IMG/VR virus record: IMGVR_UViG_3300017613_000412
From: a virus
Length of the DNA stretch: 36,450 nt
Direction: 5' to 3' (one strand)
Shown here piece after piece: positions 1-36,450 of this stretch; the first letter of the stretch is position 1, and the number at the start of each line of letters is the position of its first letter. Under the pieces are notes generated by a model. The model had not been told where the DNA came from, searched no databases, and worked only from the letters and a program-made list of their open reading frames with translations. The position numbers were made by a program, and so were the translations under genes.

Positions 1-121
1 TCCGCCAAATAAGAACGCTTCGTTGAATTTATTGAAACGATGTGTAGGATCAACAAAATTAGCAATCTGACGGCGTAGATTTGATAATATCATAGTCTTG
101 CCATATTTTATGTAAAAGTAA
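1..121. repeat. Left copy of a 121-bp exact direct terminal repeat, identical to 36330..36450. Either a circular-assembly overlap or a true DTR.
   Basis: Read directly: 1..121 is repeated verbatim at the window end. Positions 1..93 (minus) duplicate the first 31 codons of the portal ORF. Confidence 0.95.
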
Positions 122-131: not shown

Positions 132-1289
132 TTAAAATGTAAATACATCATGTTTACCGCTTAATGATTCCATTTCATGATACCTAATACCATCAATTAA
201 ATGATTAAAAGTATCAATAGGTTTATTAAGTGTCTTTCCTTGTTTGTCTTTATCCCATGAGTAATTGCGTAACTCTTTTATTAAGTTAGTACTCTCTTTA
301 GTAACCAAATAATCCTGCCTTTGCATTGTATCAATACCATAGACTATTGAATCTCTGCCTTTTGATGCTCCTACAATGTTAATACCTTTACGTCTTATCT
401 CTTCTATTGATTTAGGCTCTGCACTATCAGCATAAACTATAACATCGTTAGGTAACACGTTGCTTATATCATCATTAACCATTCCTGTTCTGTAACATAT
501 CTCATTTAAGATACGTTTATCATTGTACTTGTAAACTTCACAAATAGCAGTTGGATCGTTAGTATATCCAAAGTCTAAACCTATTCCTATCAGTTTAGCT
601 TCTTCAGGTATCTTATCTATTATGTTATAATTACTGAATATAACACCCTCTAGGAAACCTATTTGACCAAGTCCGTAAACGTTCCACCAGTTTTCCCAGT
701 ATTTGCTTGTCTTTGCTTTCTCTCTTGCTTTCTCAATCTCTCTTACTATACTTTGATCTAAAGCCTCATTATCTTTGTATGTTAAGATAATAAAATCAGT
801 ATCAGGATCAGGCTTTAATTCTGTATGAGCGTAGAACTCAAATGTAGGATTATAATCTACCCATACCTCTTTAGATGTTCTTATTGCTAATTGATTGTAA
901 GCATCAAAAGGAATGTTGTTAGTTTCATTGATATAAAGAATATCACGTCTAGCACCTCTTAATCTATCTGGTTGATCAGCACTAAAGAACTCCATATAAG
1001 AGCCGTTATGTAGCGTGTATTGAAGTAAAGACTTATTCCATTTGTTAGAATCCCATCTACCCGTAGAGATTAAACCGTTTATAAAGTCTTTGATTGCACC
1101 ACGTCTTAAATGTGGTATTGATTCACTAACTACACTTATAACTGTATTAGGGTTGTTTACTGCCTTTGAGTAGAGTATTGGTAGTATGTTGTATGTCTTA
1201 CCTGCTGAAGTGCCACCCTGAACAACCTTAACACGTTTCTTTAGTTTGGCTAATTTCTGTAATGCCGTTGTATCTACAAACTTATTCAA
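132..1289 (-). CDS. terL: Terminase large subunit (PBSX/Terminase_3-like)
   Basis: Walker A QGGTSAGKT near the N-terminus. C-terminal nuclease-like region GLDFGYTNDPTA...YADSAEP...DGIRY. TTG start overlaps the upstream stop. Located next to portal in the circular map. Confidence 0.85.
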   Translation of the reverse strand: MNKFVDTTALQKLAKLKKRVKVVQGGTSAGKTYNILPILYSKAVNNPNTVISVVSESIPHLRRGAIKDFINGLISTGRWDSNKWNKSLLQYTLHNGSYMEFFSADQPDRLRGARRDILYINETNNIPFDAYNQLAIRTSKEVWVDYNPTFEFYAHTELKPDPDTDFIILTYKDNEALDQSIVREIEKAREKAKTSKYWENWWNVYGLGQIGFLEGVIFSNYNIIDKIPEEAKLIGIGLDFGYTNDPTAICEVYKYNDKRILNEICYRTGMVNDDISNVLPNDVIVYADSAEPKSIEEIRRKGINIVGASKGRDSIVYGIDTMQRQDYLVTKESTNLIKELRNYSWDKDKQGKTLNKPIDTFNHLIDGIRYHEMESLSGKHDVFTF

Positions 1290-3174: not shown

Positions 3175-3338
3175 ATCTCTTTAATTTTATAAATGTATTC
3201 GTATTTTGCTTTCCATCCATCGGGATAGGTTATTTCGTAATCTTCTTGTATATCTCTAATTAACTTAACTCGACGTTTTAGATCAGCTTCTGTTGTAAAG
3301 AGTAGTACCTGGTTATCTGTTTTTAGTTTGTATTTCAA
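3171..3338 (-). CDS. Small ORF (55 aa) absent from the track
   Basis: Hand translation gives (M)KYKLKTDNQVLLFTTEADLKRRVKLIRDIQEDYEITYPDGWKAKYEYIYKIKEI. The TTG start lies inside the TTTTGA stop context of the upstream gene, and its stop overlaps the next ATG (ATGA). It fills an otherwise empty gap exactly. Confidence 0.45.
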   Translation of the reverse strand: MKYKLKTDNQVLLFTTEADLKRRVKLIRDIQEDYEITYPDGWKAKYEYIYKIKEI

Positions 3339-4474
3339 AATATTGATATTTGATTTTGTGCTACTTCTTTATAAGCATCAGCATTAAACATAATTACATC
3401 GCTGCTATCTAAACTTTTAATACCTGTATATTTATAACTATAACTTGGACGAAACATAATTTTTCTTCCACTATTATCTTGTCCCGGTGTTTTTAAATGT
3501 CCAGCAGTTTGTGACCAATTACTATCTCTATCAAGTGCAATTCCTAAAGCTGGATTCATAGTTCTAATAAACATTTGATGTTTTTCTTTCCAATATAAAG
3601 CACTAATATAATTAACTATTTCTTTTCCTAATCCTAATCCTTGAAAATCAGGTAAAACGACAATTCTGCTTATGCGTCTTGTTTTCGTATCGCCTACGCC
3701 TGGAAATGGCAATATTCCTACAAAAGCTATTGGTTTATCACTCCATAAAAAAACATAACATTGAGCTGCTTTGTTTAAATCTTCTGTTAAATAATGATGT
3801 TGTTTGAATATATTCCAAGTTTCATATCTACATCGAAATATCTGTAATTGAATTTTTGGTCTTTGCCTTCGACTTGACGCTCTTTCAAGACGCCCTTTTA
3901 ATGGTGAATAAATCCAATCTGGCAATAACCATTCCATAATATCAAAATGACAAGACGCAAGTATTATTTTTTTATTTGTTCTTCTTATGTATTTTTGTAA
4001 TGCGTTACTCATCGCTTTCGCTACATCTCTATCAACTACACTTGTAAACTCATCAATCAATATAACATCATTTTCAGACGCTTTGCCAACTTTATAAGCT
4101 AAAGATGCTCTATATTGTTCACCATTACTTAAAAGTGCGTAAGGTCGCAACCAAGTGGGTACAGACGCTAATCCCATAGCAGATAATAAAAACGTGGCTT
4201 CTTTAGGCTCTAACCAATCAAAATTACTTATTAATGGTTTTTCTAAATCAAATACATCTTTAGTTAAGTTGCCAAATTCTTTTAATAAAGTTGTTTTACC
4301 AGTTCCAGAGCCACCGTAAATAACACCAATATTCCAATCAAATGTTTTACATTCGCTAAAGTTGATTGGTATTTTAACAGAAGTTTCTTCTTTGTTTTGA
4401 ATATCAAATGCTTCATACACATATTCAGTATATTTATCATTAATTATTTTATTTTTTCGCTCTATGTATTTCAT
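3335..4474 (-). CDS. ABC-type ATPase fused to a C-terminal GNAT acetyltransferase domain
   Basis: Walker A GGSGTGKTT, ABC signature LSNGEQ, Walker B VILIDEFTSVVD, H-loop ASCHFD. The C-terminal GNAT motif A is RIVVLPDFQGLGLGKE. Confidence 0.7.
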   Translation of the reverse strand: MKYIERKNKIINDKYTEYVYEAFDIQNKEETSVKIPINFSECKTFDWNIGVIYGGSGTGKTTLLKEFGNLTKDVFDLEKPLISNFDWLEPKEATFLLSAMGLASVPTWLRPYALLSNGEQYRASLAYKVGKASENDVILIDEFTSVVDRDVAKAMSNALQKYIRRTNKKIILASCHFDIMEWLLPDWIYSPLKGRLERASSRRQRPKIQLQIFRCRYETWNIFKQHHYLTEDLNKAAQCYVFLWSDKPIAFVGILPFPGVGDTKTRRISRIVVLPDFQGLGLGKEIVNYISALYWKEKHQMFIRTMNPALGIALDRDSNWSQTAGHLKTPGQDNSGRKIMFRPSYSYKYTGIKSLDSSDVIMFNADAYKEVAQNQISIF

Positions 4475-4829: not shown

Positions 4830-5028
4830 CTATGTATTTTTTTATTGGTTTATTAAGCCATTCAACAATATTTAAAAACATTGATACTTTCATATCTTTT
4901 GATTTATAAAGATTGCAAACAGTAAAACGTGAAACTCCCAAATAATCTGCTAAATTCTGCTGCGTGTATTTAGTCCTATTCATTGTTTTTAATACGTCTG
5001 TATGTAAAAGATTTGTTTTTAGTTTCAT
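4819..5028 (-). CDS. Small helix-turn-helix DNA-binding protein
   Basis: YTQQNLADYLGVSRFTVCNLYK is a typical XRE-like HTH segment. Confidence 0.6.
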   Translation of the reverse strand: MKLKTNLLHTDVLKTMNRTKYTQQNLADYLGVSRFTVCNLYKSKDMKVSMFLNIVEWLNKPIKKYIDEA

Positions 5029-5675
5029 GCTAATAATATTTCTTTACAAAGTTCATAAGGTATTTTAGAACGTTCATAATTATTCTTTAATCCTTGTGTG
5101 CCTGTCTTTGATCCTCTTGGTGCTGGTTCATGATGACAATTAGGATTTCCATTATAGCATTCTGGTCTTGGTTGCCATCCATCTGGATTAAATATAGAAT
5201 AAATATTATTACTCCATATATCCGTAGGTTTCGCTCTTGTATCACCATATTGACAATACCATACAGTTGTTTTTGGTATTCCTAACATAAAAGGCATCTT
5301 TCTTAAATAACCTCTAGGATTCTCTATATACCATTTAAAGTTAGGATTGATTTTTAATATATCTTTATAAAGTTTTAATACATTTAATACAACCCTATCA
5401 CTCTTTTCTGCAAAATTAGTCTTTGGTTTTCCGTTATCTCTATGAGTTGAAATAGCTGCTATTGAGTAAGTAGTACACATTGGAGAACCCCACCCAAAAT
5501 CAGGAATAAAAGGAATATCATCTACTGTTAAGAACTCAATATCTTTAACTAAATCAATTTTATCAAAAGGTTTTACATCAACTGAAAAAACCTCATACCC
5601 TAATTCATCACATACTTTTCCTATTGATCTACTACCCGCAAATAATTCTAATACTTTCTTTTTATTTTTTTCCAT
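5025..5675 (-). CDS. Short DNA (cytosine-5)-methyltransferase
   Basis: Motif I VLELFAGSRS, motif IV GSPMCTTYS (a PC-motif variant), motif VI ENPRGY. ATG at 5675 (MEKNKKK). Confidence 0.65.
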   Translation of the reverse strand: MEKNKKKVLELFAGSRSIGKVCDELGYEVFSVDVKPFDKIDLVKDIEFLTVDDIPFIPDFGWGSPMCTTYSIAAISTHRDNGKPKTNFAEKSDRVVLNVLKLYKDILKINPNFKWYIENPRGYLRKMPFMLGIPKTTVWYCQYGDTRAKPTDIWSNNIYSIFNPDGWQPRPECYNGNPNCHHEPAPRGSKTGTQGLKNNYERSKIPYELCKEILLA

Positions 5676-5763
5676 TGCCAAATAAATTTTGTAACACCAC
5701 ATCCCATACAACTATACCTAAAATATCTTTTCCCTACTAATACGTAATCATGTTTACATTCTT

Positions 5764-12449: not shown

Positions 12450-12646
12450 TAAATACCTGTTTCGGCTCTAAAGTTAATGATTATTTTTTCAAATTCCTTG
12501 AATTGTATTGATTTTGTTTGACAAAACATCTGTAATCCCTCTAAATCCTGCAAAAAATACTTATCATCTAATTCAAAAAGATAGTTTTCAAAATCGCTAG
12601 GACTTTCAAATAATATTAATTCCCCTTCGTGTATCTCTACTTCCAT
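12449..12646 (-). CDS. Small acidic hypothetical protein (65 aa)
   Basis: ATG ORF in the track. Confidence 0.5.
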   Translation of the reverse strand: MEVEIHEGELILFESPSDFENYLFELDDKYFLQDLEGLQMFCQTKSIQFKEFEKIIINFRAETGI

Positions 12647-13119
12647 TTAATTAATTTTGTGATTACAAAGGTGTCTTCCATTGCTCTAGGCGTGTGTATT
12701 TGATTTACAGGAAAAAATATATCCTCATTTGCCTCTGCTCTGCTTCCTGTAATAGGACAAAAAATACAACCACTCACAATATTTAAAATCTCTGCTATGT
12801 CTGAATGAAAATGTTCCCCTATCGTACCACCTTTCTTAAAATGGCTTTCAAATACTATTTCTTCTTCTGACTTCTCAACTACTCTACTACGTATCTTATC
12901 GTTGAAATCAATCCACTCATAGATTGGGAACTTATCCAACTCACTAAAAGGTATATCTCTTGCCTCTGCATCTCCATTGTTAAAGTCTGCTATTGTTTTC
13001 TTAATGCTATGATCTAAAACAAGAAACTCTGAAAGCATCCGTTTACTTTCATTCTTTAGCTCTAAAGTTCTTTCTTTATATTTATCTTCTTTTCCAATAT
13101 GTTTCTTACGCCAGAACAT
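12637..13119 (-). CDS. Cupin-domain protein
   Basis: Exact cupin motif 1, G-x5-HxH-x4-E-x6-G: GGTIGEHFHSDIAEILNIVSG. The region downstream (PVNQIH) resembles motif 2. Confidence 0.6.
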   Translation of the reverse strand: MFWRKKHIGKEDKYKERTLELKNESKRMLSEFLVLDHSIKKTIADFNNGDAEARDIPFSELDKFPIYEWIDFNDKIRSRVVEKSEEEIVFESHFKKGGTIGEHFHSDIAEILNIVSGCIFCPITGSRAEANEDIFFPVNQIHTPRAMEDTFVITKLIKWK

Positions 13120-14849: not shown

Positions 14850-14948
14850 TTATTCTATTTCTATTTTAACGTGAATAGGAAAATTATCATCTAATGGATT
14901 ATCTATATCCTCAATTTCTATACTTATATGAATTGGGAAATCATTCAT
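14850..14948 (-). CDS. Possible 32-aa peptide with an internal repeat
   Basis: MNDFPIHISIEIEDIDNPLDDNFPIHVKIEIE. The ATG overlaps the stop of the lyase gene (ATGAATGA). Confidence 0.2.
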   Translation of the reverse strand: MNDFPIHISIEIEDIDNPLDDNFPIHVKIEIE

Positions 14949-17511
14949 CGACTTGATTTAAAAATTCCTCTAACCACGTGTAATCGTTTGGACCTATATC
15001 GTTGTGACTATCTCCAGGACTCATATTAGCGTCAAACCAAACTTCAGGTATATGTGAACTTTTTTCTTCTTTATAATATCCTGCTGGTCTTTTATTAATT
15101 GCCGTTGTACTTACACTTGCCCAAAATGTACTCCAGTGGTCTGTTGTATGAAAATTATGTCCACCACTTGAAGCAGTATAACTAACTCCTGTTCCTGCCA
15201 CTATCCCATCTACATAAACAGTATCTAAAGCATCATGTCCTACTGTTACGCTACCATCAGCATTTAGTGAGGCATTTGCACCACAATCGTCATCTAAAGC
15301 AGCTATTAAAACATCAGCTTCTATTATTGAAGGTGTATTAACTAAATCGGAATGAGGTGTAGCTTTCTTTAAATCAGTAAATGCAGTTGGGCTTATCGGT
15401 TGGTAAATTCCTTTTTTACCGTTTTCTTCTGTCCAATCAAGGTAACTACTCCAGCCATCACCTCTATCTTGAAATAAACATAACTGATTAGTATAAGGCT
15501 GAACCTCATCAATATTTCCAGCATAATCCCAAGGATCATCTGTTTTAGATAATAAAATTGTACCCTCTTTATCAAGTATATTACCAGTTGTGTAAATTTC
15601 TTGGGCTGATTCCGCTACTAATTGCATACCAACATTAGCAATACCATCCGCAACAGAACTTAACGCTCCCATAGTATAGTAGTTACTAATATGATTTATT
15701 TTATTAGTTCCCTCAACTACTGATAATCTATTTTTCCAATTAAATACAACATTATTAATTATATCCTGTCTGTCATCAGAATTTGCGTTTGGGTGTCTGT
15801 GAGGTACGTTATAATGCATATTTCTTAAATAAGACATTCTGTAATTTATAGAAGTGTTATTACTATCCCCAAAAATAGAGCCTGTTTTACCTTCTGCTAT
15901 TAAACAATTCTGAATAGTTATATCTTCCGAAGTACCTCTAAATGTAACAATCTCATCTCCACCCCAAGAAAAAGAGCAATGGTCTAATATAACATTACTG
16001 CAATTTAAAAAGTCTAAAGCATCATCTCCACCCCAACTACTATCGGGTAAATTATGTCTGAATTTTACATATCTTATAATTATATTACTTCCTGATGTTT
16101 GGATTAATGGACTTACAATAGTAATACCACCTTCAGGAGCGGTTTGACCTGCTATTGTTACATCAGAAGGAATACTGATTGTTCCATTTGAAAGTAATAT
16201 TTCAATAGTACCTGAAACATCAAAAACAATAATTCTTGCACCTGTGTAATCTTCTATCGCCTCTCTAAATGAACCTGTTCCACCATCTACCAAAGTATCA
16301 ACATGAATAACTTGCCCACCTCTGCCACCTGTGGCATTAGAGCCACCACCATTTGCTGTTGGAAATGCTTTAACATCACTAACCTCGTAAGGGATGCAAG
16401 TCACCACGCAAGTATCTGTAAAACTGCCGTCTGTTGTAGTAAAAGTTATCGTTGCCGTTCCGCTATCTGCCAATCCAGAACATAAACCATTAGAATCAAC
16501 GGTTACATTTGCCTCTGTATCACTAGACCATGTACCGCTTTTATCAGAGGCATCTGACGGTGAAACTACTTTTGTAAGTTGTAATGTTCTAGTGTTTTCT
16601 AAATCACTCGTAGCTGGTGAAACTGAAACACTTGTTACCGAAACACCTGCTGGAGTTTCAGCCTCAACTAGAATTTCATTTGATTGTGGAAAAACAGGTG
16701 GTACTGCATTTATATATCGACATTCTAATTTAAAAGTGTGATCCTCTTCAACATCTAAACCTGATATGGTTCTGGTGAAACCACTATATGAATCTCTGTC
16801 ATTCTGATCGACATCATCTATAAATGTATCATACCCACCAATAGGAGTTAAAGCGTATGTCGGCAAAGAGAAATTTAAAACATAATTAGCACCATTAAGA
16901 ACCGCTGAATCTAATACAGGTGCTAATTGTGTAAGTACTGAAACCTCGCAAGTATCTGTGTAAGAACCATCATTTGTTGTATAAGTGATCGTTACTCCAC
17001 CGTAAGCTACACTTGTAACTAATCCGTTAGAATCGACGGTTGCTATATCTGTATCATCAGAACTCCAAACACCTGTCTGATCGACTGCATTTGAAGGTAT
17101 TATATCTTTTGTTAGTTGAGTTGTTTCTCCTAAAGTTAAATCATAAGTAGAAGGTGTAACTGTAACACCTGTTACTGGTATAGGTGGATTTTCAACCGTT
17201 ACATCACAAGAATCATTAAACCCTCTATCATTCGCTGTAAAAGTTATTGTAACTAAACCATCTAAAATACCTGTTACTAATCCATTTTGGTCAACGGTTG
17301 CTTTATCAGTATCACTACTAGACCAAACGCCTGTCTGGTTTGTAGCGTTGTCTGGTATAATTGTTGCAGTTAATTGTGTTGTGCTTCCTTCATCTACACT
17401 TACCGTTGCTGGAGTTACTACAACTTCTGTTATCGGTATAGTTGGATCGTTTCCTTCTTCAATGGTTGTTTCACCTGTTGATCTGATTGTTATGTTTATA
17501 TATTTTCCCAT
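14941..17511 (-). CDS. Virion-associated polysaccharide lyase: three Big_2 Ig-like repeats, an FN3-like spacer, and a PL1 pectate-lyase catalytic domain
   Basis: Three Big_2-like units (VTPxT...TxQLTxxIxPxxAxxQxGxWSSxDTxxATVDxNGLVT). Catalytic region TGGRGGQVIHVDTLVDGGTGSFREAI...IVFDVSGTI...TIAGQTAPEGGITI...IIRYVKFR...LDHCSFSWGGDE. Confidence 0.75.
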   Translation of the reverse strand: MGKYINITIRSTGETTIEEGNDPTIPITEVVVTPATVSVDEGSTTQLTATIIPDNATNQTGVWSSSDTDKATVDQNGLVTGILDGLVTITFTANDRGFNDSCDVTVENPPIPVTGVTVTPSTYDLTLGETTQLTKDIIPSNAVDQTGVWSSDDTDIATVDSNGLVTSVAYGGVTITYTTNDGSYTDTCEVSVLTQLAPVLDSAVLNGANYVLNFSLPTYALTPIGGYDTFIDDVDQNDRDSYSGFTRTISGLDVEEDHTFKLECRYINAVPPVFPQSNEILVEAETPAGVSVTSVSVSPATSDLENTRTLQLTKVVSPSDASDKSGTWSSDTEANVTVDSNGLCSGLADSGTATITFTTTDGSFTDTCVVTCIPYEVSDVKAFPTANGGGSNATGGRGGQVIHVDTLVDGGTGSFREAIEDYTGARIIVFDVSGTIEILLSNGTISIPSDVTIAGQTAPEGGITIVSPLIQTSGSNIIIRYVKFRHNLPDSSWGGDDALDFLNCSNVILDHCSFSWGGDEIVTFRGTSEDITIQNCLIAEGKTGSIFGDSNNTSINYRMSYLRNMHYNVPHRHPNANSDDRQDIINNVVFNWKNRLSVVEGTNKINHISNYYTMGALSSVADGIANVGMQLVAESAQEIYTTGNILDKEGTILLSKTDDPWDYAGNIDEVQPYTNQLCLFQDRGDGWSSYLDWTEENGKKGIYQPISPTAFTDLKKATPHSDLVNTPSIIEADVLIAALDDDCGANASLNADGSVTVGHDALDTVYVDGIVAGTGVSYTASSGGHNFHTTDHWSTFWASVSTTAINKRPAGYYKEEKSSHIPEVWFDANMSPGDSHNDIGPNDYTWLEEFLNQVDE

Positions 17512-21634: not shown

Positions 21635-22111
21635 TTAATCTTCAAATATATATGTATCTCCTTCTTCATACTGATACGTTGTATCTGCAATATCTACTAT
21701 TGTAGGTTCGCCGTAACCCTCTATCGTTCCATCAAACGTTAAATAATCGCCTTGTGGTGCATTTTCTGATAAATTTACAATATAACCTTCTCCGGTTTGT
21801 TCAAACACCCCATCTACTTTTATCTTCCAGTCAATCCTGGTTCTTGCTCTTTTTAAAACCCTTAAAGTGTCTAAACTATACCTCGTCGGTGTTGTTTCAT
21901 CCGTAATAATCTGCACTCCCGTAAAGTTAATATTAAAACTTTGATTTTGTGGTCGTGACGTTTTCCACCCCTCATTGTCGGAAGTTGTAGTTTCGAGCAT
22001 ATCGACAGTTTCTGAAAAACCGTTGTCCTGTAAACACGCAATAGGACAATCGACGCCACCAACTACTAGATAAAGTATCTGTTCTTCTCCTTTATAAAAC
22101 GTTTCTGCCAT
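21635..22111 (-). CDS. Tail-tube-like paralog (baseplate or tube-related)
   Basis: Aligns by eye with the major tail protein at 26614..27054: GxExILY, PxxCL, SExVD, SFxIxFxG, LRxLK...WKI. Confidence 0.5.
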   Translation of the reverse strand: MAETFYKGEEQILYLVVGGVDCPIACLQDNGFSETVDMLETTTSDNEGWKTSRPQNQSFNINFTGVQIITDETTPTRYSLDTLRVLKRARTRIDWKIKVDGVFEQTGEGYIVNLSENAPQGDYLTFDGTIEGYGEPTIVDIADTTYQYEEGDTYIFED

Positions 22112-22114
22112 GTT

Positions 22115-22130
22115 GTAAAGTTAATAAATA
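22115..22130 (-). promoter_or_regulatory. Recurrent motif gtaaagttaataaata (minus-strand TATTTATTAACTTTAC)
   Basis: Shares a 15-mer with 29451.. and 33969... It fills the 19-nt intergenic gap before the ATG at 22111. Confidence 0.3.
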
Positions 22131-27522: not shown

Positions 27523-27892
27523 GATGTTTTATTCCTTTTTTTAGTTCTTTAACGTATTTAGGTGCTACAATTTTTAAAGCAGGATACATATAAGGTCTGG
27601 GGCCACCGTTCGGGCCTGTACCTATTGGCTTACCATATTCTACATAAGCAGCGTAATTTGTGCCAGTTGAAATAACTCTTGTAAGACCATCTGAACCTGG
27701 TAGGTCAAAATCATGAATAGAATCGTGTAATCTACTTGTGTCTTTAGGCACTATTACTTTTGCTTCAACTTCGATTTGTTCTGACGCTATTCTAGTTTGT
27801 GATTTAATTTCTTGCACTCCCTTTTCGCCAAAGTCCTTTAACTTATTAATAAGCTTATCTACTCCCTTTATTTGCATATTTAATTTAGCCAT
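27500..27892 (-). CDS. HK97 gp10-family head-tail joining protein
   Basis: VPKDTSRLHDSI...NYAAYVEYG...RPYMYPAL matches the gp10 family pattern. Confidence 0.7.
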   Translation of the reverse strand: MAKLNMQIKGVDKLINKLKDFGEKGVQEIKSQTRIASEQIEVEAKVIVPKDTSRLHDSIHDFDLPGSDGLTRVISTGTNYAAYVEYGKPIGTGPNGGPRPYMYPALKIVAPKYVKELKKGIKHHAKDITR

Positions 27893-28208
27893 TCTTTACT
27901 GCTATAAATTGAATAAATCTATTATCGAAATTAGTATTCGTTGGAAAACTCTTAATTGTATATTCTTCTGATTTGTACTTTATGAAATGCTTTTTAGCGT
28001 TAAAGTCAAATACATCTGGTTTACGTACTGTAACCATGATATTTAAAGACTTATTGTCTAAGCCTAGTTCAGTTATATCTCTACCTTTTAAAGTTCTTAA
28101 ATCAGCCCACATATCGTATAACTTTTCGCTTGTTATATTACCATCGCCATATTCATCAACAACTGCGGTTATTAACCAAACTTCTATTTGTTTTCTTAAC
28201 TCTCTCAC
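27885..28208 (-). CDS. Head-tail adaptor / head closure protein (SPP1 gp16-like)
   Basis: Size and position, plus a DEYGD...WADL...G pattern. The GTG start is coupled to the upstream stop (GTGA). Confidence 0.55.
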   Translation of the reverse strand: MRELRKQIEVWLITAVVDEYGDGNITSEKLYDMWADLRTLKGRDITELGLDNKSLNIMVTVRKPDVFDFNAKKHFIKYKSEEYTIKSFPTNTNFDNRFIQFIAVKNG

Positions 28209-28681
28209 AATATAAATCGTTTATTGCTAAATAATATCTCTCTTGACATTTCAGATAAATCCTTTGCTATTGTTTTGCCTGTTTCATGAGAGTAATACAA
28301 TAAGTCAATTATCTCTAATGCTACATCAATTAAATCAGGTGGTACATCAGCAGGATCTAAATAACCTACCGTAAGCGTTAAATCTGTTGTTTCTGAACCG
28401 TAATTATAGATATTATAAGTTGTCTTTTCTATTGTATCATCGTCATCGTAATCCGTTGGTACATCAACTGAATCAATAGGATAATCATACACATAAACAC
28501 ACCCATCAACCATTAAATAGGTTTGTGAACGTTGATATACTAAAATATTAGTTTGTCGTTCTACGTAGCTTAAAGCAGTCTTAATCATGCGTGTAATAGC
28601 ATCATTATCCGCTGTTAATGTTTCATCTACTCTTAAATGCGTTTTAGCCGTTGCTAAAGGTATTACATCAATATATGCCAT
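28205..28681 (-). CDS. Head-tail connector (gp6-like)
   Basis: LATAKTHLRVDETLTADNDAITRMIKTALSYVERQT is the typical gp6-like N-terminus. Confidence 0.7.
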   Translation of the reverse strand: MAYIDVIPLATAKTHLRVDETLTADNDAITRMIKTALSYVERQTNILVYQRSQTYLMVDGCVYVYDYPIDSVDVPTDYDDDDTIEKTTYNIYNYGSETTDLTLTVGYLDPADVPPDLIDVALEIIDLLYYSHETGKTIAKDLSEMSREILFSNKRFIL

Positions 28682-28682
28682 T

Positions 28683-28862
28683 TTATAAATCTTTTAATTC
28701 GCCAAATAAGGCAGTTTCTTTATCTATTCTAATATCATAAACAACTGAATACCCTTTGTATGTTCTTTTTTTGAATCCTATTGAATTATTAGGGTTCATT
28801 ACAAAAACTAATGGCTTATCAATTTTAGGGTGTTCTGAAATCATTTTGTTTAATAGTTCCAT
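28683..28862 (-). CDS. Small ORF (59 aa) absent from the track
   Basis: MELLNKMISEHPKIDKPLVFVMNPNNSIGFKKRTYKGYSVVYDIRIDKETALFGELKDL. It abuts both neighbours. Confidence 0.45.
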   Translation of the reverse strand: MELLNKMISEHPKIDKPLVFVMNPNNSIGFKKRTYKGYSVVYDIRIDKETALFGELKDL

Positions 28863-29021
28863 TTAATTAGTTTTTTGCCATTTATTATTTACTTTTTCAA
28901 TATCTACCATTTTACCATCTTGCATATAACAATAAGTTTTAGTAGAATCTATTTCGCCATTTTTATCTAACTCTGAAAACCTTTCTAACCAATCAGATAA
29001 TACTCTTTCCGATGTTCTCAT
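28863..29021 (-). CDS. Small ORF (52 aa) absent from the track
   Basis: MRTSERVLSDWLERFSELDKNGEIDSTKTYCYMQDGKMVDIEKVNNKWQKTN. ATGA overlap with the upstream stop. Confidence 0.45.
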   Translation of the reverse strand: MRTSERVLSDWLERFSELDKNGEIDSTKTYCYMQDGKMVDIEKVNNKWQKTN

Positions 29022-29200
29022 TGCTCTTTTTTACCTCTTTTTGGTTTAACTTCTTTTTTCTCTGTTCTTACTCTCTTAACCAGCCCTAAAGTTATTAAAT
29101 AATCTTCTCTGCTTTTCGTTAAACCTCTTATTATCTCACCTACCTTTTTAGTACTCTGATCGGTGGTTAAATGTTGAAACTCCTTAATTACTTTAATCAT
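29018..29200 (-). CDS. Small protein with a basic C-terminal tail (60 aa)
   Basis: ATG ORF with a KKEVKPKRGKKEQ tail. Confidence 0.5.
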   Translation of the reverse strand: MIKVIKEFQHLTTDQSTKKVGEIIRGLTKSREDYLITLGLVKRVRTEKKEVKPKRGKKEQ

Positions 29201-29436
29201 TTCTTTCTAGTTTTACGTTCTGAACGTCTTTGTTTTAGTCTGTTATCGTAATTCTCTTGTAACGTTTTTTCTTTTTTGACTACCTTTTTAACCACTTTTT
29301 TAACAGGTGGTTTAATTTCTTGTGCAATACCTCTACCCACTACTACATTTGAATGTTTGACGTCTGCAAAGTAAATAGAACCCGTTGCTTTAAACTCGCC
29401 ATCATAATAATGGTTCTTTAATGCTTTTAATTTCAT
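29197..29436 (-). CDS. Small protein with a (VKK)n basic tail (79 aa)
   Basis: PPVKKVVKKVVKKEK...RRSERKTRKK. Preceded by the recurrent motif. Confidence 0.5.
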   Translation of the reverse strand: MKLKALKNHYYDGEFKATGSIYFADVKHSNVVVGRGIAQEIKPPVKKVVKKVVKKEKTLQENYDNRLKQRRSERKTRKK

Positions 29437-29450
29437 GACTATAAATTTTA

Positions 29451-29469
29451 GTAAAGTTAATAAATTTTA
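29451..29469 (-). promoter_or_regulatory. Recurrent motif gtaaagttaataaatttta
   Basis: 17 of its nucleotides are identical to 33969..33985. On the minus strand TAACTTTA lies 15 nt upstream of the ATG at 29436. Confidence 0.35.
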
Positions 29470-30024
29470 TTTTAAATGAGATTGCTCGTATCTTGGCTCT
29501 TTTCCCCATTCTCTGTATAAGTGAAACATGTAAATTCCTTTTGCTATTCCTATCTTACCACCAATCTTTTCAACATAACGACTTAATACGTTATCCAAGT
29601 ATGAACCTTTATAAGCTATTCCACCTTCAGGAAACCGTCCTACATCTTCCCATGTCTGTTTACTGAATAACATCATAACTCCAGCTATTAATGGATTAGG
29701 TGATTCTTCTACTAAAGAACCGTACTTATCGTATCTCTCGTGTGCTATTTTAACGTGATTCTTAATATTGAAATCCTCTGAACAAATCCCGTTATGACAT
29801 TGATATAAAACGCCTTGTCTGTTTGTCATACAACTTACTAAATCAAATTCGTTTGCTTCTGCAATATCTTCACATTGTTTAAAAAAGGCTCTATGATGTA
29901 AAGGGAAGGTGTCGATGTCACGAACACAAATCCAATCTTCATCCGAAAGAAACTCTATTAATTCATTTAATGCTCTTCCTAAATCTTTATCTGCTCTACC
30001 TGGAGTTATGTGATGAACTGTCAA
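29467..30024 (-). CDS. GT-A-fold glycosyltransferase-like protein
   Basis: DxD-like ICVRDIDTF and AGVMMLFSKQTWEDVGRFPEG. The TTG start lies in the TTTTGA stop context of the methylase. Confidence 0.45.
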   Translation of the reverse strand: MTVHHITPGRADKDLGRALNELIEFLSDEDWICVRDIDTFPLHHRAFFKQCEDIAEANEFDLVSCMTNRQGVLYQCHNGICSEDFNIKNHVKIAHERYDKYGSLVEESPNPLIAGVMMLFSKQTWEDVGRFPEGGIAYKGSYLDNVLSRYVEKIGGKIGIAKGIYMFHLYREWGKEPRYEQSHLK

Positions 30025-30668
30025 AATATTGTTAGTTGTGATTGGTGTTGCTTTAGTCTTTTCATTGCTGCATCGTAATATTCCTTATCAAGCTCACAAG
30101 CTGTTAAATCATATTTAAGGTTGTGACAAGCTATCGCAATACTACCACTTCCTAAATGAGTATCAAGTATTAAATCCCCCTCTTTGGCATAGTTCATTAA
30201 AAGCCACTCGTATAGTTTAATGGGTTTTTGAGTTGGGTGTATTTTTATTTCTTTATTTTTCATATCTTCTTGAATAAAACCAAACCAAGTGTATTTATGT
30301 ATTTTTAATGCTGTTTTAAAACTTGTCCAAGCTAATTCACCATCAGCAAAAAAACTCTCTTTATTATTTTTATCCCAAATAATAATTGATGGCGTTGAAT
30401 TTAAATATTCTAAAAAATAATTACCACCCCAAATGATTTGATTTTTACTAACTCTCATTAATTCGTTAAAGTATTCAACATTTGGTGTTGCATTATCCCA
30501 ATCTTTTTTGGTAAATTCAGTTGCTTTAGCGTGTTTATTACTTATCCCAACCTTTCCTGTTTTAGCGGCATCTATTCCATAAGGCGGATCGACTATTGCT
30601 AAATCAAAGTAATTATCTTCATATCTCGCCATTAGTTTCATATTATCTTCATTAGTTATTGTTATCAT
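30021..30668 (-). CDS. Beta-class DNA N6-adenine/N4-cytosine methyltransferase
   Basis: Motif IV IVDPPYGI precedes the AdoMet motif LDTHLGSGS. HPTQKP is present. Confidence 0.85.
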   Translation of the reverse strand: MITITNEDNMKLMARYEDNYFDLAIVDPPYGIDAAKTGKVGISNKHAKATEFTKKDWDNATPNVEYFNELMRVSKNQIIWGGNYFLEYLNSTPSIIIWDKNNKESFFADGELAWTSFKTALKIHKYTWFGFIQEDMKNKEIKIHPTQKPIKLYEWLLMNYAKEGDLILDTHLGSGSIAIACHNLKYDLTACELDKEYYDAAMKRLKQHQSQLTIF

Positions 30669-31288
30669 AGATAATAATTTTGTTTATGTCCTTTCATAAT
30701 TATTGCGTATTGTCCTTTTTCATGTCCTGAAGTGATATTTTCAGGTAGTATTCCTGTTTTCCAACAAGCATAAGGTAAACTGACTTGATCTCTAGGTGCA
30801 AATTTACACGTTTCCTCATACCAAACATCGTGCAATCGGTTTATCTTTTCATCATTCCTTCTTACATGAAAACCATTTAAAAATAGATATTTACCTGCAT
30901 AACCTTGACTTCGATAGTAGTTTATTTGTTTGTCTATTATTTCTCTAGGAAATCTACCGTTTTTAATGATTTGTGCTGCTTCCTGGAATATATCCGTTCT
31001 TGCGATATGTGTAAACCATACTGGTTCGTTAGGTGGTTCTTTAAGTAGTTTCTGATTGCCATCTATGTAACATACTAAATCGTATTCAGGTATAAACTTA
31101 TGAGGTAATATTTTTACTTCTCGACTTAACAAAAGAGGGTTATCACTTTGAAAATATCTAATATCCCAACCTTTAGAATCTTCTCTATATTCATCTGTAA
31201 ACATTATAGAATCCCAACCCTCGAATTTAGGTGCTATTGGTAGTTCATCATAATCACCTGTTATTACGCTAAATATTGCTTTTTTCAT
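30665..31288 (-). CDS. DUF616-type glycosyltransferase
   Basis: IFSVITGDYDEL...SREVKILPHKF...YIDGN...YYRSQGY...RDQVSLPYACWKTG matches the DUF616 pattern. Confidence 0.7.
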   Translation of the reverse strand: MKKAIFSVITGDYDELPIAPKFEGWDSIMFTDEYREDSKGWDIRYFQSDNPLLLSREVKILPHKFIPEYDLVCYIDGNQKLLKEPPNEPVWFTHIARTDIFQEAAQIIKNGRFPREIIDKQINYYRSQGYAGKYLFLNGFHVRRNDEKINRLHDVWYEETCKFAPRDQVSLPYACWKTGILPENITSGHEKGQYAIIMKGHKQNYYL

Positions 31289-31412
31289 TGAACTGCTTAC
31301 ATTCTTGTTTTACTATTTTTACTAAATAATCAATATAAGTTTCTAAATCATTCTCGTATTTACCATTTATAAAGTCTTTAGAGTAATAATCTTTAGGGTT
31401 TGGTCTTTTCAT
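31269..31412 (-). CDS. Possible small ORF (47 aa)
   Basis: MKRPNPKDYYSKDFINGKYENDLETYIDYLVKIVKQECKQFNEKSNI. It bridges the 104-nt gap and overlaps both neighbours. Confidence 0.3.
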   Translation of the reverse strand: MKRPNPKDYYSKDFINGKYENDLETYIDYLVKIVKQECKQFNEKSNI

Positions 31413-31971
31413 AATATTTCTGTTTATTGATTGTTGTATCTCTGTCTAACTTTGTTTCAAACGTTGTATCTGCATAAACCGTAACATCTGACATATAAAA
31501 CTCAAAACCTTTATCTTTTAGTCGTTGCATAAACTCTGTGTCATCATAACCGTAGTTGCCACAAAAACGCTCATCATAACCACCAACATCCCGTAAATCA
31601 CTTACATTTGCAAGGTAGATATTTTTATGCGGATTTATCCACTTTCCTTTATGTTTTCTTTTGAATCTAACAATCTCTTTTTCTTCCGGAATGAAGTTGT
31701 ATAATCTAGGTAAGTCTTTAACATTAAAATAATGATCAATATCCATTCTTAACACTAATCCGTTAATCTTACTAAACCCTAAATTGTTTGCTTTAGGTTG
31801 ATTCCATTTAACGTCCTTTTCTATTCTGTAAACAGTTGCCCATTCGCATTTTAAAGGTACTTTAGAACCGTCATCTATAATAACTATGTCAATATCTGCT
31901 TTATCAAATCCAAGACGTTCAAGGTTCTTTATCGCCTCTGGCTGATTGTAGTATAAATATAAAATGGTCAT
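31393..31971 (-). CDS. Family-2 glycosyltransferase
   Basis: MTILYLYYNQ..., VIIDDGS, DIDH, GGYDERFCGNYGYDDTEF. The ATG at 31971 lies just downstream of the capsid-gene terminator. Confidence 0.7.
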   Translation of the reverse strand: MTILYLYYNQPEAIKNLERLGFDKADIDIVIIDDGSKVPLKCEWATVYRIEKDVKWNQPKANNLGFSKINGLVLRMDIDHYFNVKDLPRLYNFIPEEKEIVRFKRKHKGKWINPHKNIYLANVSDLRDVGGYDERFCGNYGYDDTEFMQRLKDKGFEFYMSDVTVYADTTFETKLDRDTTINKQKYYEKTKP

Positions 31972-31984
31972 AAAAAGTAAAGAT

Positions 31985-32016
31985 ACAAAAAAAGAGGGAT
32001 TAATCAAAACCCCTCT
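31985..32016 (-). terminator. Intrinsic terminator downstream of the major capsid gene
   Basis: The stem agaggg (31993..31998) pairs with ccctct (32011..32016). On the minus strand it is followed by TTTTTTTGT. Confidence 0.5.
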
Positions 32017-32073
32017 CTTTCACAATGAAAACAAACAACCAAATTTACAACCGATTGTAAGTTTTATAAACTA

Positions 32074-33249: not shown

Positions 33250-33252
33250 CTT

Positions 33253-33948
33253 TTAAAAATTGTTTTTAATAAAATTATTTATAATGTCGGCAGAGTTGTC
33301 TTTTTGAGTAGGTAAAACTGGCTCATGTTCAACTTGTGACTTTGTTCCTAGTATGTAAGCATGAGATTGTAGTTCTTTTAAAGCGAACTCTAGCAATACA
33401 AAACTCTCGTCTGTTAATGTACCATCCCTCAATGCTTTTGTTATTTTCTTTATCTTATCGTTTGAATCGGCTAATGTAAGGTTCTTAAAGCCGGTAAAAG
33501 GAGTTTCAGGGTTCGCGCCTAAAGTGACATTCGATCCCTCATATAACTTGATTTCTTTTATTGTTCTAATACCTGTCTTTTGGTCTTTATCTGCTTTGAT
33601 AGTATTAAAACCAATAGAATGTTCGTTTATTACTCCAGCTTCATATAACTTTAAAAGGTCTGTTGAATAAGTAGTTTCTAGCAAAGGTTCACTCTCAAAG
33701 TATAAACCCTTTTCATCTTCTTGTAAGACTGCAAACTTACCATGCGGTTGTTTCCAATCGTGTTGGTTTAAGAATCTTATTTGGTCTTTACGTTCTGATA
33801 ACGTTTTACTAAACGCTCCTTTTTCAATTATATCATTGTCAAAATCTTTATTTCCAAAGGCTGATAAATACCCTGTTACTATTCTTTTCTTTACATCAAC
33901 ATCTTTTAGTGAATCTCCGTAACTTTTAAATCTTAATATATCGTTCAT
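33253..33948 (-). CDS. Prohead protease (HK97 / S78 family)
   Basis: VTGYLSAFGNKDFDNDIIEKGAFSKTL...FLNQHD...GKF...EDEKGLYF. Confidence 0.8.
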   Translation of the reverse strand: MNDILRFKSYGDSLKDVDVKKRIVTGYLSAFGNKDFDNDIIEKGAFSKTLSERKDQIRFLNQHDWKQPHGKFAVLQEDEKGLYFESEPLLETTYSTDLLKLYEAGVINEHSIGFNTIKADKDQKTGIRTIKEIKLYEGSNVTLGANPETPFTGFKNLTLADSNDKIKKITKALRDGTLTDESFVLLEFALKELQSHAYILGTKSQVEHEPVLPTQKDNSADIINNFIKNNF

Positions 33949-33968: not shown

Positions 33969-33986
33969 GTAAAGTTAATAAATTTA
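33969..33986 (-). promoter_or_regulatory. Recurrent motif gtaaagttaataaattta upstream of the protease/capsid genes
   Basis: On the minus strand TAACTTTA lies 21 nt upstream of the ATG at 33948. A TTG sits 17 nt further upstream (-33-like). Confidence 0.4.
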
Positions 33987-34110: not shown

Positions 34111-34941
34111 TTATGTCCTAATCAAATTACCATCCTTGTCTCTTGCTGCTATAATAGAAACTGAACAACGGCAATTAATAATATTCCCTGCTGAACCTCT
34201 AAACTTATCACCTGGATAACTTAATTCTTCATATCCTTTCATTGGTATTAAACCTCTCATAGGCACTTTAAAGTTTTCTTTTAATCCAACTTGTTTAAGG
34301 TGCATATCGAAATGGTCAAACTTTGCTTTAGGGAAACGTCTAGTTCTTGCGTCACTTGCTGAAATCCATATCTTATTAGTTACAAACCCTGTTATTTCTC
34401 CAGCGTGTAAAGCTGCCTTATTCGCTGCTGACGTTGCTTCTGTTCTAGCTATTCTTCTTGCTTGGTATCTGTAAAACCCTCTTTGGTTTACTGTACGTTG
34501 TAGATTTCTAGCGATTTCTTCAATCCCTAAACCCTCTTGAAATCCATTTGATATAATTCTTACTATTGTTCTTTTAAATGTATTAGCAATCGTTTTAATG
34601 TTATCTGCACCATGTTCACGCAACCAATCTAATATAACTGATATGTAAGAACTATTAAAGTTGTTTAATTCAAAGAACTTTGTTGTTTTGTTAAACTCTG
34701 CTCCTATTCGTTTACCATGTACTAAACCTATATTTGTGTAAATAAGATATAATGATTCTTCTAATAACTTCGTGTCTATTGCTTCATCTATAAGTTGATC
34801 ATAATTAAAGTAATTTAACTTATCAAAGTCAATAGCTTTACCCCACGTTTTAAATGTTTGGTCTAATGGTTTTAAGGCTCTCTTTTCATATTGCTTATGC
34901 CACCTTAACCATCTACGCCGATATTTATTTAGCTTTGCCAT
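34111..34941 (-). CDS. Head morphogenesis protein (Mu F / SPP1 gp7 family)
   Basis: RRIARTEATSAANKAALHAGE...ISASDARTRRFP...HFDMHL...GNIINCRCS. Confidence 0.8.
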   Translation of the reverse strand: MAKLNKYRRRWLRWHKQYEKRALKPLDQTFKTWGKAIDFDKLNYFNYDQLIDEAIDTKLLEESLYLIYTNIGLVHGKRIGAEFNKTTKFFELNNFNSSYISVILDWLREHGADNIKTIANTFKRTIVRIISNGFQEGLGIEEIARNLQRTVNQRGFYRYQARRIARTEATSAANKAALHAGEITGFVTNKIWISASDARTRRFPKAKFDHFDMHLKQVGLKENFKVPMRGLIPMKGYEELSYPGDKFRGSAGNIINCRCSVSIIAARDKDGNLIRT

Positions 34942-35039: not shown

Positions 35040-36422
35040 TCAATTTGTGGTCTTTCCAATGTCAAAATCGTTATTTAATGCTTCTTCTAAACTTATAATG
35101 TCACTTGTTACAGTGTACGCTTCCATTGCATCATTCTCAACCTCTAGGTATTGTATAGCGTTTCTATACTCGTTTCTGTTTATTACACCTCTGTCTAATG
35201 CGTTATTTAACCATTCAGTCATTTCTTTAATATCTGACTGCATTTCAGGTAACTCCATTACATCAAAGATAATCTCACTATTCTCGTACCCTTTGAATTT
35301 TGGAACGAAATATATGTTTAACGCCTGTTCTAATAGCTTTATATCTGGCTGGATATTATCAACTACTCTCTGTTTTCTTATTTGTTGAATAGTACCACCG
35401 AAATCTGAATTACCATCGTTAATCTCCCAATTAAGACAAGCAGCTATTTGTTTCTCATCGAACTTAAAGTAATCAAACGGTTTTAACTCATCACTTGTAA
35501 GCGACATTCTAGTAAAAGCTAACTCATGACTAAAACCACCAATCTTACCTAATGCTTCAGTAGATGCATTCATTTCAAGTAATCTCTCTTTTATAGCCTT
35601 TGCTTGTGTATCGGTTAATGATTGATTTTTAGCGTGAAGAAAGCCAAATGCTCCACCACTTAACATCGTTTTAATGTTTAGGTCTAAACCTAGATTACTA
35701 GATTGTATATTCTTTAATGCTGCTCTTAACGGTGACATTCCATAAAGATGCTCTCCATTCTCGCTATAATTTGGATTAGAATATTTAATGTGAATAACGT
35801 CAGGTTCTTCAAATTCTATAAACTGCCTTCCATATGTAAGTAAGTAACCTTTTACCGGACTTTCATCCATTAACATATTGGTGTTGTCCTTTACAACTAT
35901 CTGTATTAAATGAGAGGGTAGAATATAAACGTGTAAAGGTGTTCCTTTGTTCATCCCATCCTCTGGTGATAATGTATATAAATAAACGTTACCTGTGCAT
36001 TTTAACATTGTCTTATACAACGAAAGAAACTCTGTCCATGTTTGATTAGGATTAGGACGTTCTAAAGGAAACTCTCTATCTTCTTTTGAGTAGGCTTTAG
36101 ATTGCAGTTTAACATACTTTAAGAGTTGTGTCATTGACATATCTCCTTTAGTCGATTGCATTAATTGTGTTAACTTTCTATTGGCTTGTTCGTCTTCTAT
36201 GTCTTTAATGTAAAAAGGTACGTTAGCAGTCTTTGTAGCCATTTGATTTACCATCGAATAGACTAAAGGGTTAACGTTATATCCGCTTTCTATGTAGGTT
36301 CTTCCATTAGGATCGTAAGGAGTATAATTTCCGCCAAATAAGAACGCTTCGTTGAATTTATTGAAACGATGTGTAGGATCAACAAAATTAGCAATCTGAC
36401 GGCGTAGATTTGATAATATCAT
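35040..36422 (-). CDS. Portal protein
   Basis: 460 aa located between terL (via circular closure) and the Mu F-like gene. The N-terminus lies in the terminal repeat. Confidence 0.8.
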   Translation of the reverse strand: MILSNLRRQIANFVDPTHRFNKFNEAFLFGGNYTPYDPNGRTYIESGYNVNPLVYSMVNQMATKTANVPFYIKDIEDEQANRKLTQLMQSTKGDMSMTQLLKYVKLQSKAYSKEDREFPLERPNPNQTWTEFLSLYKTMLKCTGNVYLYTLSPEDGMNKGTPLHVYILPSHLIQIVVKDNTNMLMDESPVKGYLLTYGRQFIEFEEPDVIHIKYSNPNYSENGEHLYGMSPLRAALKNIQSSNLGLDLNIKTMLSGGAFGFLHAKNQSLTDTQAKAIKERLLEMNASTEALGKIGGFSHELAFTRMSLTSDELKPFDYFKFDEKQIAACLNWEINDGNSDFGGTIQQIRKQRVVDNIQPDIKLLEQALNIYFVPKFKGYENSEIIFDVMELPEMQSDIKEMTEWLNNALDRGVINRNEYRNAIQYLEVENDAMEAYTVTSDIISLEEALNNDFDIGKTTN

Positions 36423-36450
36423 AGTCTTGCCATATTTTATGTAAAAGTAA
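36330..36450. repeat. Right copy of the 121-bp direct terminal repeat
   Basis: Verbatim identity to 1..121. Confidence 0.95.

Follow-up and report, generated by a model that had tools for sequence, protein, structure and literature searches.

Why would a phage keep glycosyltransferases in the middle of its head genes? The question is raised by a four-gene island on the minus strand of IMG/VR virus record IMGVR_UViG_3300017613_000412, a stretch of 36,450 nucleotides (nt) that was analyzed at its full length and is called the window below. An earlier reading of the DNA alone (the original prediction) had placed three glycosyltransferases (GTs; genes A, B and D here) and a DNA methyltransferase (gene C) between the major capsid gene and the head-tail connector, and had proposed that the phage either glycosylates its own virion or remodels the host envelope. 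We report that, among related phages, the presence of gene D co-varies with a serine or threonine as the last residue of both the major capsid protein and the major tail (tube) protein. This co-variation lends specific support to the virion option, while the envelope option gains none here. We consider it likely that the island is a late-expressed cassette for O-glycosylation of the virion with a DNA methylase lodged in it. On balance we also favor a broader reading, in which the D family forms a widespread and previously unrecognized virion-glycosylation system of Bacteroidota phages and uncultured aquatic siphoviruses, with the last Ser/Thr of capsid and tube as the attachment point.

Gene D and the last residue of capsid and tail tube

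Gene D has no match in Pfam or NCBIfam and is recognized by two PHROG families labeled glycosyltransferase, phrog_14179 (6e-37) and the C-terminal half of phrog_26101 (7e-39). Its product carries an RDIDT motif, and D36, D38 and H168 are invariant in 28 D-family sequences. An AlphaFold (AF2) model built on the homologue alignment (predicted local distance difference test score, pLDDT, 92.7) has a GT-A fold, and its best Foldseek matches in the Protein Data Bank (PDB) are GT27 polypeptide N-acetylgalactosamine (GalNAc) transferases (1.5e-5; template modeling (TM) score ~0.53). The model also matches GT-A structures in the BFVD library and, more weakly, the wall-teichoic-acid rhamnosyltransferase RmlT and a TET-associated GT. 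Sequence profile searches of the PDB with the D and B alignments returned no meaningful match, fold comparison alone being successful.

The family comprises 851 clusters at 50% identity (E <= 1e-10) and has so far been annotated as a generic "glycosyltransferase" or as hypothetical, with no curated model. In the siphovirus loci examined that have identifiable neighbors, D always lies within or beside head-morphogenesis genes. A pattern-limited scan of 185,579 GTDB genomes found it at only four loci, three of them beside phage head genes; these loci include two Chitinophagaceae prophages and a contig from a metagenome-assembled genome (MAG). D is predicted to be a protein-directed, initiating O-glycosyltransferase, a role proposed because it is the only universal component of the cassette and because its fold is closest to the protein-directed GT27 enzymes.

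Phapecoctavirus-like coliphages (L015, 4998..8174; L142, Escherichia phage Antha; L-numbers denote fetched relative loci) carry a D homologue of 35% identity at the head of a four-GT array between endolysin and primase genes. Their exposed head decoration and tail sheath proteins end ...VVFTS and ...STVSS, respectively, and their major head protein ...KLTTA. A literature search on Phapecoctavirus GTs found nothing relevant.

The last residues were compared across ~200 related loci from IMG/VR, other assemblies and metagenomes. Iterative profile searches of six-frame open reading frames (ORFs) served to map the capsid genes of every fetched locus; counts were made on clusters at 70% identity, and only D-positive loci with a complete capsid ORF were counted for the capsid. 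The capsid protein ends in Ser or Thr in all 21 D-positive clusters versus none of five D-negative ones, and the tail tube protein does so in 13 of 15 versus none of three. For seven control virion proteins, pooled, the corresponding counts are 9/116 (7.8%) in D-positive and 4/49 in D-negative clusters. Within the window, a terminal Ser or Thr is encoded by only five of 51 ORFs, among them the capsid (...FTAT) and tube (...PNAT) genes.

The capsid rule holds across more than 12 unrelated C-terminal ends (GDFTAT, VSGT, VTLAS, AGPVT, EAFS, LTSS, FNAS, LETT, TPTT, TRTT, GATT, NATT, AAHS, TFGS, NDPS and LPES). The contrast is sharpest in the window's own clade, where ten D-positive capsids end ...GDFTAT, whereas 15 D-negative ones end ...GDFTAV, TAI, TATA, TSA or FVAI, their last residue being Val, Ile or Ala. 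With kinship ignored, Fisher's test gives p = 3e-7 against all D-negative capsids and p = 1.2e-4 against D-negative contigs of at least 31 kb only. The tube follows suit (p = 9e-4, kinship again ignored), with ...VDPNAT, ...PNAS, ...PEGS and ...DPIT in D-positive phages versus ends such as ...DPNA, ...DPNV, ...DPEA and ...DPTI in D-negative ones, whose last residue is Ala, Val, Ile or Pro.

On a neighbor-joining tree of the capsids, D-positive and D-negative phages interleave: D-positive L008 pairs with D-negative L031, D-positive L009 with D-negative L024, and D-positive L005 lies beside a D-negative clade. This interleaving implies several independent co-transitions. Samples chosen on D alone (the Chitinophagaceae prophages, the MAG contig from GTDB and new metagenome contigs) agree with the rule, and all three GTDB loci with both a capsid and a tube gene obey it. 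A profile search with a five-sequence alignment of large-clade capsids retrieved D-positive relatives only, and hence no D-negative controls from that clade.

In D-positive L092, L102-L107 and L103, the head-closure protein Hc1 (homologues of window 27885..28208) also ends in Thr (...NFNEPT, ...NFNETT, ...RNENTT, ...GDLVST). To judge from these ends, some lineages may have Hc1 as their third substrate.

A modular insertion behind the capsid gene

Profile searches bear out the original calls for all four enzymes: A through Pfam GT2 models, B through PF04765, D through PHROG, with GT-A models for B and D, and the methyltransferase with its DPPY motif through PF01555 and phrog_67. All four lie on the minus strand where they had been placed (Table 1), and four small ORFs (28683..29436) separate D from the adaptor, so that island and connector are not immediate neighbors.

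The product of gene A carries the motifs IIDDGS, MDIDH and GGYDERF and scores above the Pfam gathering cut-offs for PF10111 Glyco_tranf_2_2 (33.5 vs 27.3) and PF02709 Glyco_transf_7C (27.6 vs 23), and marginally for PF00535 Glycos_transf_2 (23.4 vs 23.3). Among the relatives examined, A is confined to the L003/L004/L036 lineage and is an optional cassette member. Gene B matches PF04765 TOD1_MUCI70, formerly DUF616, at 37.7 bits against a cut-off of 21.4 (1.9e-9), over profile positions 151-288 of 314 only, and the N-terminal half of phrog_26101 (6e-17). Its AF2 model on the homologue alignment (pLDDT 92.2) has a GT-A fold, with GT6 ABO and alpha-1,3-galactosyl transferases as best PDB matches in Foldseek (3e-7; TM score ~0.57). 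A literature search on DUF616 in phages found nothing relevant. The 104-nt gap between A and B is bridged by a 47-amino-acid (aa) ORF (31269..31412, minus strand) whose two ends run into these genes. Nothing supports this ORF as a gene, and the direct overlap of A with B in L003 makes it an improbable one.

Gene C matches PF01555 N6_N4_Mtase (69.5 bits, 5e-19) and phrog_67 (1.8e-44). Its catalytic DPPY lies at residues 27-30 (IVDPPYG), and a DTHLGSGS motif for binding S-adenosylmethionine (SAM) is found near the C-terminus. The gene partially matches CcrM-type adenine methylases, and C5 DNA-methylase families are absent from its Pfam matches. The predicted 4-nt overlaps are present as ATGA between B and C (30665-30668) and as TTGA between C and D (30021-30024).

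Is the island an insertion, as had been supposed? In 15 close relatives without it (capsids 42-51% identical), only ~190-420 nt separate capsid and adaptor genes, which makes the island a true insertion. The hairpin behind the capsid gene exists as predicted and is not an island boundary: 20 relatives, some with an island and some without, have comparable GC-rich hairpins 3' of the capsid gene. The hairpin is therefore an original feature of this phage group, and the insertion took place immediately behind it. The hairpin probably attenuates transcription into the island.

At the other edge, homologues of the 79-aa gene lie immediately 3' of D in L002, L003, L009 and L011, and MK(V/L)(I/L)K... 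ORFs resembling it come right after the capsid hairpin in D-negative relatives. The recurrent promoter-like motif noticed there stood up to counting. The 15-mer ATTTATTAACTTTAC has exactly three exact copies in the window (29451..29465, 33969..33983 and 22115..22129), all on the minus strand and each just upstream of a gene start; shuffled sequences give an expectation of 0.10, and none of 100 shuffles reached three matches. It is absent from 144 fetched related loci.

The same junction holds other material elsewhere. D-negative L024 (2872..3861) has a different 1.5-kb insertion at the capsid-adaptor site, encoding a 329-aa protein unrelated to GTs, and the junction is thus a general insertion hot spot. 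Between the 79-aa gene and the adaptor of the window, three small ORFs of 59, 52 and 60 aa (28683..29200, minus strand) are missing from relatives such as L002; on comparison of the loci, this is a second variable spot beside the island. In D-positive L003 (6786..7592), L035 and L036 the adaptor itself has a Ser/Thr/Gly-rich insertion of ~110 aa, which the adaptor of the window does not have.

Across relatives, D is the sole constant part of the cassette, B, A and a methyltransferase slot being optional. After the capsid gene we found the arrangements capsid-[B][D], capsid-A-B-[Methyltransf_11]-D and capsid-[Methyltransf_23]-D; at the terminase, either D alone or B-[Methyltransf_11]-D lies upstream. 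A large clade has a B-D fusion between portal and protease, and in the type represented by Cellulophaga phage phi18:1 the fusion is preceded by Methyltransf_24 and lies between the MuF and protease genes. The 407-residue family phrog_26101, whose N-terminal half resembles B and whose C-terminal half resembles D, mirrors this architecture. The methyltransferases of relatives, which either separate B from D or immediately precede the GT genes (Methyltransf_11, _23 or _24), are unrelated class I SAM enzymes. In L104 (6524..10531), the capsid gene (...ILETT) is followed by a 399-aa GT2, an RmlD-like reductase, a sugar C-methyltransferase (Methyltransf_13/14), D and then the adaptor, a cassette that from its gene content appears to supply a methylated deoxysugar.

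An N6/N4 DNA methylase in the B-D slot was seen in the window only, the other relatives compared having sugar-type methyltransferases or nothing there. The closest homologues of gene C (58% identical) are stand-alone methylases in DNA-metabolism regions of other Flavobacteriia phages. Gene C therefore belongs to the island by position, as predicted, and by its relatives probably stands outside the glycan pathway, as a passenger that acts on DNA. Recruitment of gene C to methylate the glycan was considered and deemed unlikely, since its close homologues sit in DNA-metabolism contexts.

Possible acceptors of the glycosyltransferases

Several points weigh against virion glycosylation by the D family. 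The case for the function of the family is built from sequence comparison and predicted structures, and the fold matches of D and B are to generic GT-A enzymes (TM score ~0.5-0.6, identity 9-18%), which establish a fold and not a donor, an acceptor or a specificity. Three D-positive tube proteins break the rule (...TTDPHP, ...PIADTI and ...ESGGF). D-negative status was assigned from partial loci and from non-retrieval in a pattern-based scan of the collection, the D-negative controls come from the window's own clade only, and the association counts ignore phylogeny. The Phapecoctavirus-like coliphages carry their D homologue outside the head module, and their major capsid protein ends ...LTTA. 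Compared by hhalign, the D profile gives probabilities of only 0.3% against Corndog gp38 (GT25-like) and 3.9% against gp37, that is, no detectable homology to the mycobacteriophage GTs. Finally, a homologue of gene C adjoins a TET/JBP and GT cluster for DNA modification in Nonlabens phage P12024L.

The target of the GTs could instead be a glycan of the host surface, be it O-antigen, capsule or a lipid-linked envelope precursor of Bacteroidota; its remodeling would block superinfection or keep progeny from adsorbing to infected cells and debris. Phage GT-A enzymes with such a role, seroconverting or of the TarP type, are well known; RmlT is among the weaker structural matches of D, some D-positive elements are prophages, and the coliphage homologue lies outside the structural module. 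We nevertheless hold this to be unlikely. It leaves unexplained why D should co-vary with the last residue of capsid and tube, and D lies within or beside the head-morphogenesis genes in every siphovirus locus examined that has identifiable neighbors. The window is a complete circular genome in which the family scans, covering only part of the small ORFs, found no integrase, repressor or other lysogeny function. The family matches of the scanned ORFs contain no GtrA or GtrB homologue either, within the same coverage and with transmembrane segments not predicted.

A second alternative is that the link between D and the terminal Ser/Thr is an artefact of lineage and that D acts on some other acceptor, be it a phage or host protein or a small molecule. 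The relatedness of the sequences, which the counts ignore, the single clade of D-negative controls, the tube exceptions and the terminal Ala of the coliphage major capsid protein all speak for it. The interleaving of D-positive and D-negative phages on the capsid tree speaks against it, as does the appearance of the rule in two unrelated proteins, in more than 12 unrelated C-terminal types and in three collections sampled on D alone, against a base rate of 7.8% in the control proteins. Mycobacteriophages with experimentally demonstrated glycans bear the same signature (see below). We regard this alternative as quite improbable.

The window's methylase and GTs might also act jointly to hypermodify the phage DNA with glycosylated bases and so evade restriction. 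In many phages GT-A enzymes glycosylate 5-hydroxymethylcytosine, and clusters of this sort may lie close to structural genes (bioRxiv 10.1101/2023.12.21.572611); a TET-associated GT is among the weak structural matches of D. In P12024L (L013, 2371..4636; gp26-gp28), a TET/JBP oxygenase, a GT and the gene C homologue gp28 (58.6% identity) are adjacent, a cluster that looks like one for DNA base hypermodification with an N6/N4 rather than a C5 methylase.

This last alternative is very improbable, since by PHROG and Pfam scans of the larger ORFs and by tblastn the complete circle has no TET/JBP oxygenase, thymidylate-synthase-like (ThyA) hydroxymethylase or C5 methyltransferase, gene C is of the N6/N4 type and cannot supply 5-methylcytosine, the GT of P12024L is unrelated to A, B and D, relatives fill the slot with small-molecule-type methyltransferases or leave it empty, and the co-variation of capsid and tube would again go unexplained. 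With the P12024L TET protein, tblastn against the genome gave E values of at least 1.7, and a weak Cupin_2 match at 12637..13119 is insignificant (E = 0.032, below cut-off). The absence of TET/JBP, ThyA and C5 genes, the unrelated P12024L GT and the varied slot lead us to see in gene C a DNA methylase deposited at a gene junction prone to recombination.

Returning to virion O-glycosylation, we infer an acceptor, an order of action, a kind of sugar and a benefit as follows. Late transcripts of the head operon would pass the capsid hairpin and continue, at a lower level, into A-B-C-D, giving catalytic amounts of enzyme against hundreds of capsid copies. Translation of B, C and D may be coupled, to judge from the ATGA (B/C) and TTGA (C/D) overlaps. 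D, acting in a metal-dependent manner and with a nucleotide sugar as donor, would attach the first sugar to the hydroxyl group of the last residues, Thr391 of the capsid protein and Thr146 of the tube protein. B, with its GT6-like fold, and then A, a GT2 enzyme, would extend it to a short oligosaccharide. In relatives, the class I SAM methyltransferase in the slot or upstream would methylate the sugar (O- or C-), or synthesis of a deoxysugar would be added, while in the window C would separately methylate phage DNA. Candidate benefits are shielding of the surface against proteases, lectin-like defenses or non-productive adsorption, and altered stickiness of the virion.

If this is correct, phages of a second bacterial phylum and abundant aquatic phages also glycosylate their own capsids and tails, by way of a different enzyme family. 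Modifying the terminal residue of capsid and tube with a sugar would then be a strategy general among phages and predictable from sequence alone, with D plus a terminal Ser/Thr on both proteins as the signature across metagenomes. Virion glycosylation outside the actinobacteriophages is directly testable in cultured Cellulophaga phages. The modification could affect how the virion surface interacts with hosts, particles, grazers and immune systems, and might be put to use as a one-residue glyco-tag in phage display or engineering.

Known systems and genomic surroundings

To our knowledge, only mycobacteriophages have been shown to glycosylate their particles, a trait that Freeman et al. (2023) reportedly judged rare elsewhere. 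According to the accounts of Freeman et al. (2023) in PMC12619734, PMC11600133, PMC12363180 and PMC10877033, the virions of Che8, Corndog and Myrna are glycosylated by phage-encoded GTs, and in Cluster O phages three GT genes come after one for an O-methyltransferase. The first two of these sources place the glycans at the C-termini of capsid and tail-tube subunits in Che8 and Corndog. Che8 gp110 and Corndog gp38 count as the essential enzymes of the system.

The C-terminal ends of these proteins, which we read directly, are ...NKTGS (capsid gp6) and ...YSDGS (major tail gp11) in Che8, and ...PLVGS (capsid gp41) and ...IKGDS (major tail gp49) in Corndog. Other head-tail proteins of the two phages do not end in Ser or Thr, except for Corndog gp42 (...KSTS). 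Capsid and tube thus end in Ser in Che8 and Corndog and in Ser or Thr in D-positive phages. Both systems use phage-encoded GT-A enzymes, often accompanied by a SAM methyltransferase (the gp108-110 region of Che8; gp35 and gp36-38 of Corndog). The original prediction had pointed to mycobacteriophage GTs that lie next to structural genes, which is true of Corndog: in its head module, O-methyltransferase gp35 and GTs gp36-38 separate gp34 from the capsid gene gp41, in the position also taken by the B-D fusion and Methyltransf_24 in phi18:1 and the large clade. Corndog gp35 (TylF/Methyltransf_24) and phi18:1 gp40 both match PF13578 Methyltransf_24.

The two systems also differ. BLASTP of Corndog gp35-38 against the island and head-module proteins of the window gave only motif-level similarity, between gp37 and A. 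D is not detectably homologous to the Corndog GTs, and function therefore cannot be transferred by homology. The hosts are Actinobacteria on one side and Bacteroidota or uncultured aquatic bacteria on the other, the methyltransferase of the window is a DNA methylase whereas that of Corndog is an O-methyltransferase, and the mycobacteriophage glycans were found on virions, while the D-family system is known from genes alone. By analogy, we propose that the D system works like the mycobacteriophage one without the same enzyme families. That it arose independently, or diverged beyond recognition, is part of the joint reading of the D family and shares the modest preference that we give it.

The closest cultured parallel is phi18:1 (Helsingorvirus). 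Its gp41, annotated "putative glycosyltransferase" and the type member of phrog_26101, is a 407-aa B-D fusion, 31% identical to B and 45% to D, encoded in the head module; its capsid ends ...VSGT and its tube ...VRTVGT. The cultured, D-positive Cellulophaga phages phi12:1 and phi17:1 likewise combine a B-D fusion with Methyltransf_24. In phi18:1 the enzymes are fused rather than split, lie between the MuF-like gene and the protease gene rather than after the capsid gene, and have no GT2 partner; a Methyltransf_24 gene precedes the fusion, where in the window a DNA methylase interrupts B and D.

More distant comparisons agree in part. DNA-hypermodification clusters (a C5-methyltransferase/TET pair or a ThyA homologue with a GT; P12024L gp26-gp28) likewise bring together a methyltransferase and a GT-A enzyme, while the window has no oxygenase or hydroxymethylase, an N6/N4-type methylase and GTs unrelated to that of P12024L. 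GT27 and GT6 enzymes share the GT-A fold and an Asp-x-Asp type metal site with D and B; compared with the GT27 polypeptide GalNAc-transferases, D has only 185 aa and no lectin domain. Chlorovirus PBCV-1 decorates its major capsid protein with its own cytoplasmic GTs and methyltransferase domains. It differs from the D system in being a eukaryotic giant virus, with N-linked glycans at atypical sequons, other enzymes and another capsid fold.

Table 1. The island and the head-tail module of the window (positions in nt)
Feature	Position	Strand	Evidence or remark
Portal	35040..36422		head-to-tail module
MuF-like head-morphogenesis protein	34111..34941		
Prohead protease	33253..33948		
Major capsid protein, HK97-type, 391 aa	32074..33249	-	PF05065 1.4e-12, phrog_10; end ...IYGDFTAT
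Terminator-like hairpin, 14-bp stem + T7	31988..32021	-	after capsid gene
Gene A, small GT2-family glycosyltransferase, 192 aa from ATG	31393..31971	-	Pfam
Gene B, DUF616/TOD1_MUCI70 GT-A glycosyltransferase, 207 aa	30665..31288	-	PF04765
Gene C, N6/N4 DNA methyltransferase	30021..30668	-	PF01555, phrog_67
Gene D, minimal GT-A glycosyltransferase, 185 aa, TTG start	29467..30024	-	PHROG; cassette core
Promoter-like 15-mer	29451..29465	-	ends 14 nt upstream of next gene
Small conserved gene, 79 aa	29197..29436	-	downstream edge of insertion
Head-tail adaptor, gp6-like connector	28205..28681	-	PF05135 2.4e-5, phrog_442, phrog_40; structural module resumes here
Head-closure, Neck1, tail terminator	between adaptor and major tail protein		
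Major tail (tube) protein, 146 aa	26614..27054	-	phrog_1407 3.9e-15; end ...AVDPNAT
Chaperones and tape measure	after major tail protein in module order		

The window has 121 identical nt at its two ends (1..121 and 36330..36450) and is thus a complete circular phage genome of ~36.3 kb, in which, once the ends are joined, the terminase gene (132..1289) is the immediate upstream neighbor of the portal gene. Its GC content is ~32%, and nearly all genes are on the minus strand. A megablast search of positions 28000-33500 against 50,697 phage records gave no match.

Other minus-strand genes of the genome extend the picture. The early region encodes a second DNA methyltransferase (5025..5711; phrog_757 8e-27, no Pfam match), so that the phage has two methylases, and the 379-aa product of 3335..4474 joins an AAA-type ATPase to a GNAT acetyltransferase (phrog_11143 3e-152, Pfam Acetyltransf_1). 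Downstream of the tape measure region lies the gene for a second paralogue resembling the major tail protein (21635..22111; phrog_1407 4e-25; end ...TYIFED), with one of the exact 15-mer copies in front of it. An 856-aa tail fiber (14941..17511), with three Ig-like repeats and a pectate-lyase-like domain, is probably a polysaccharide depolymerase.

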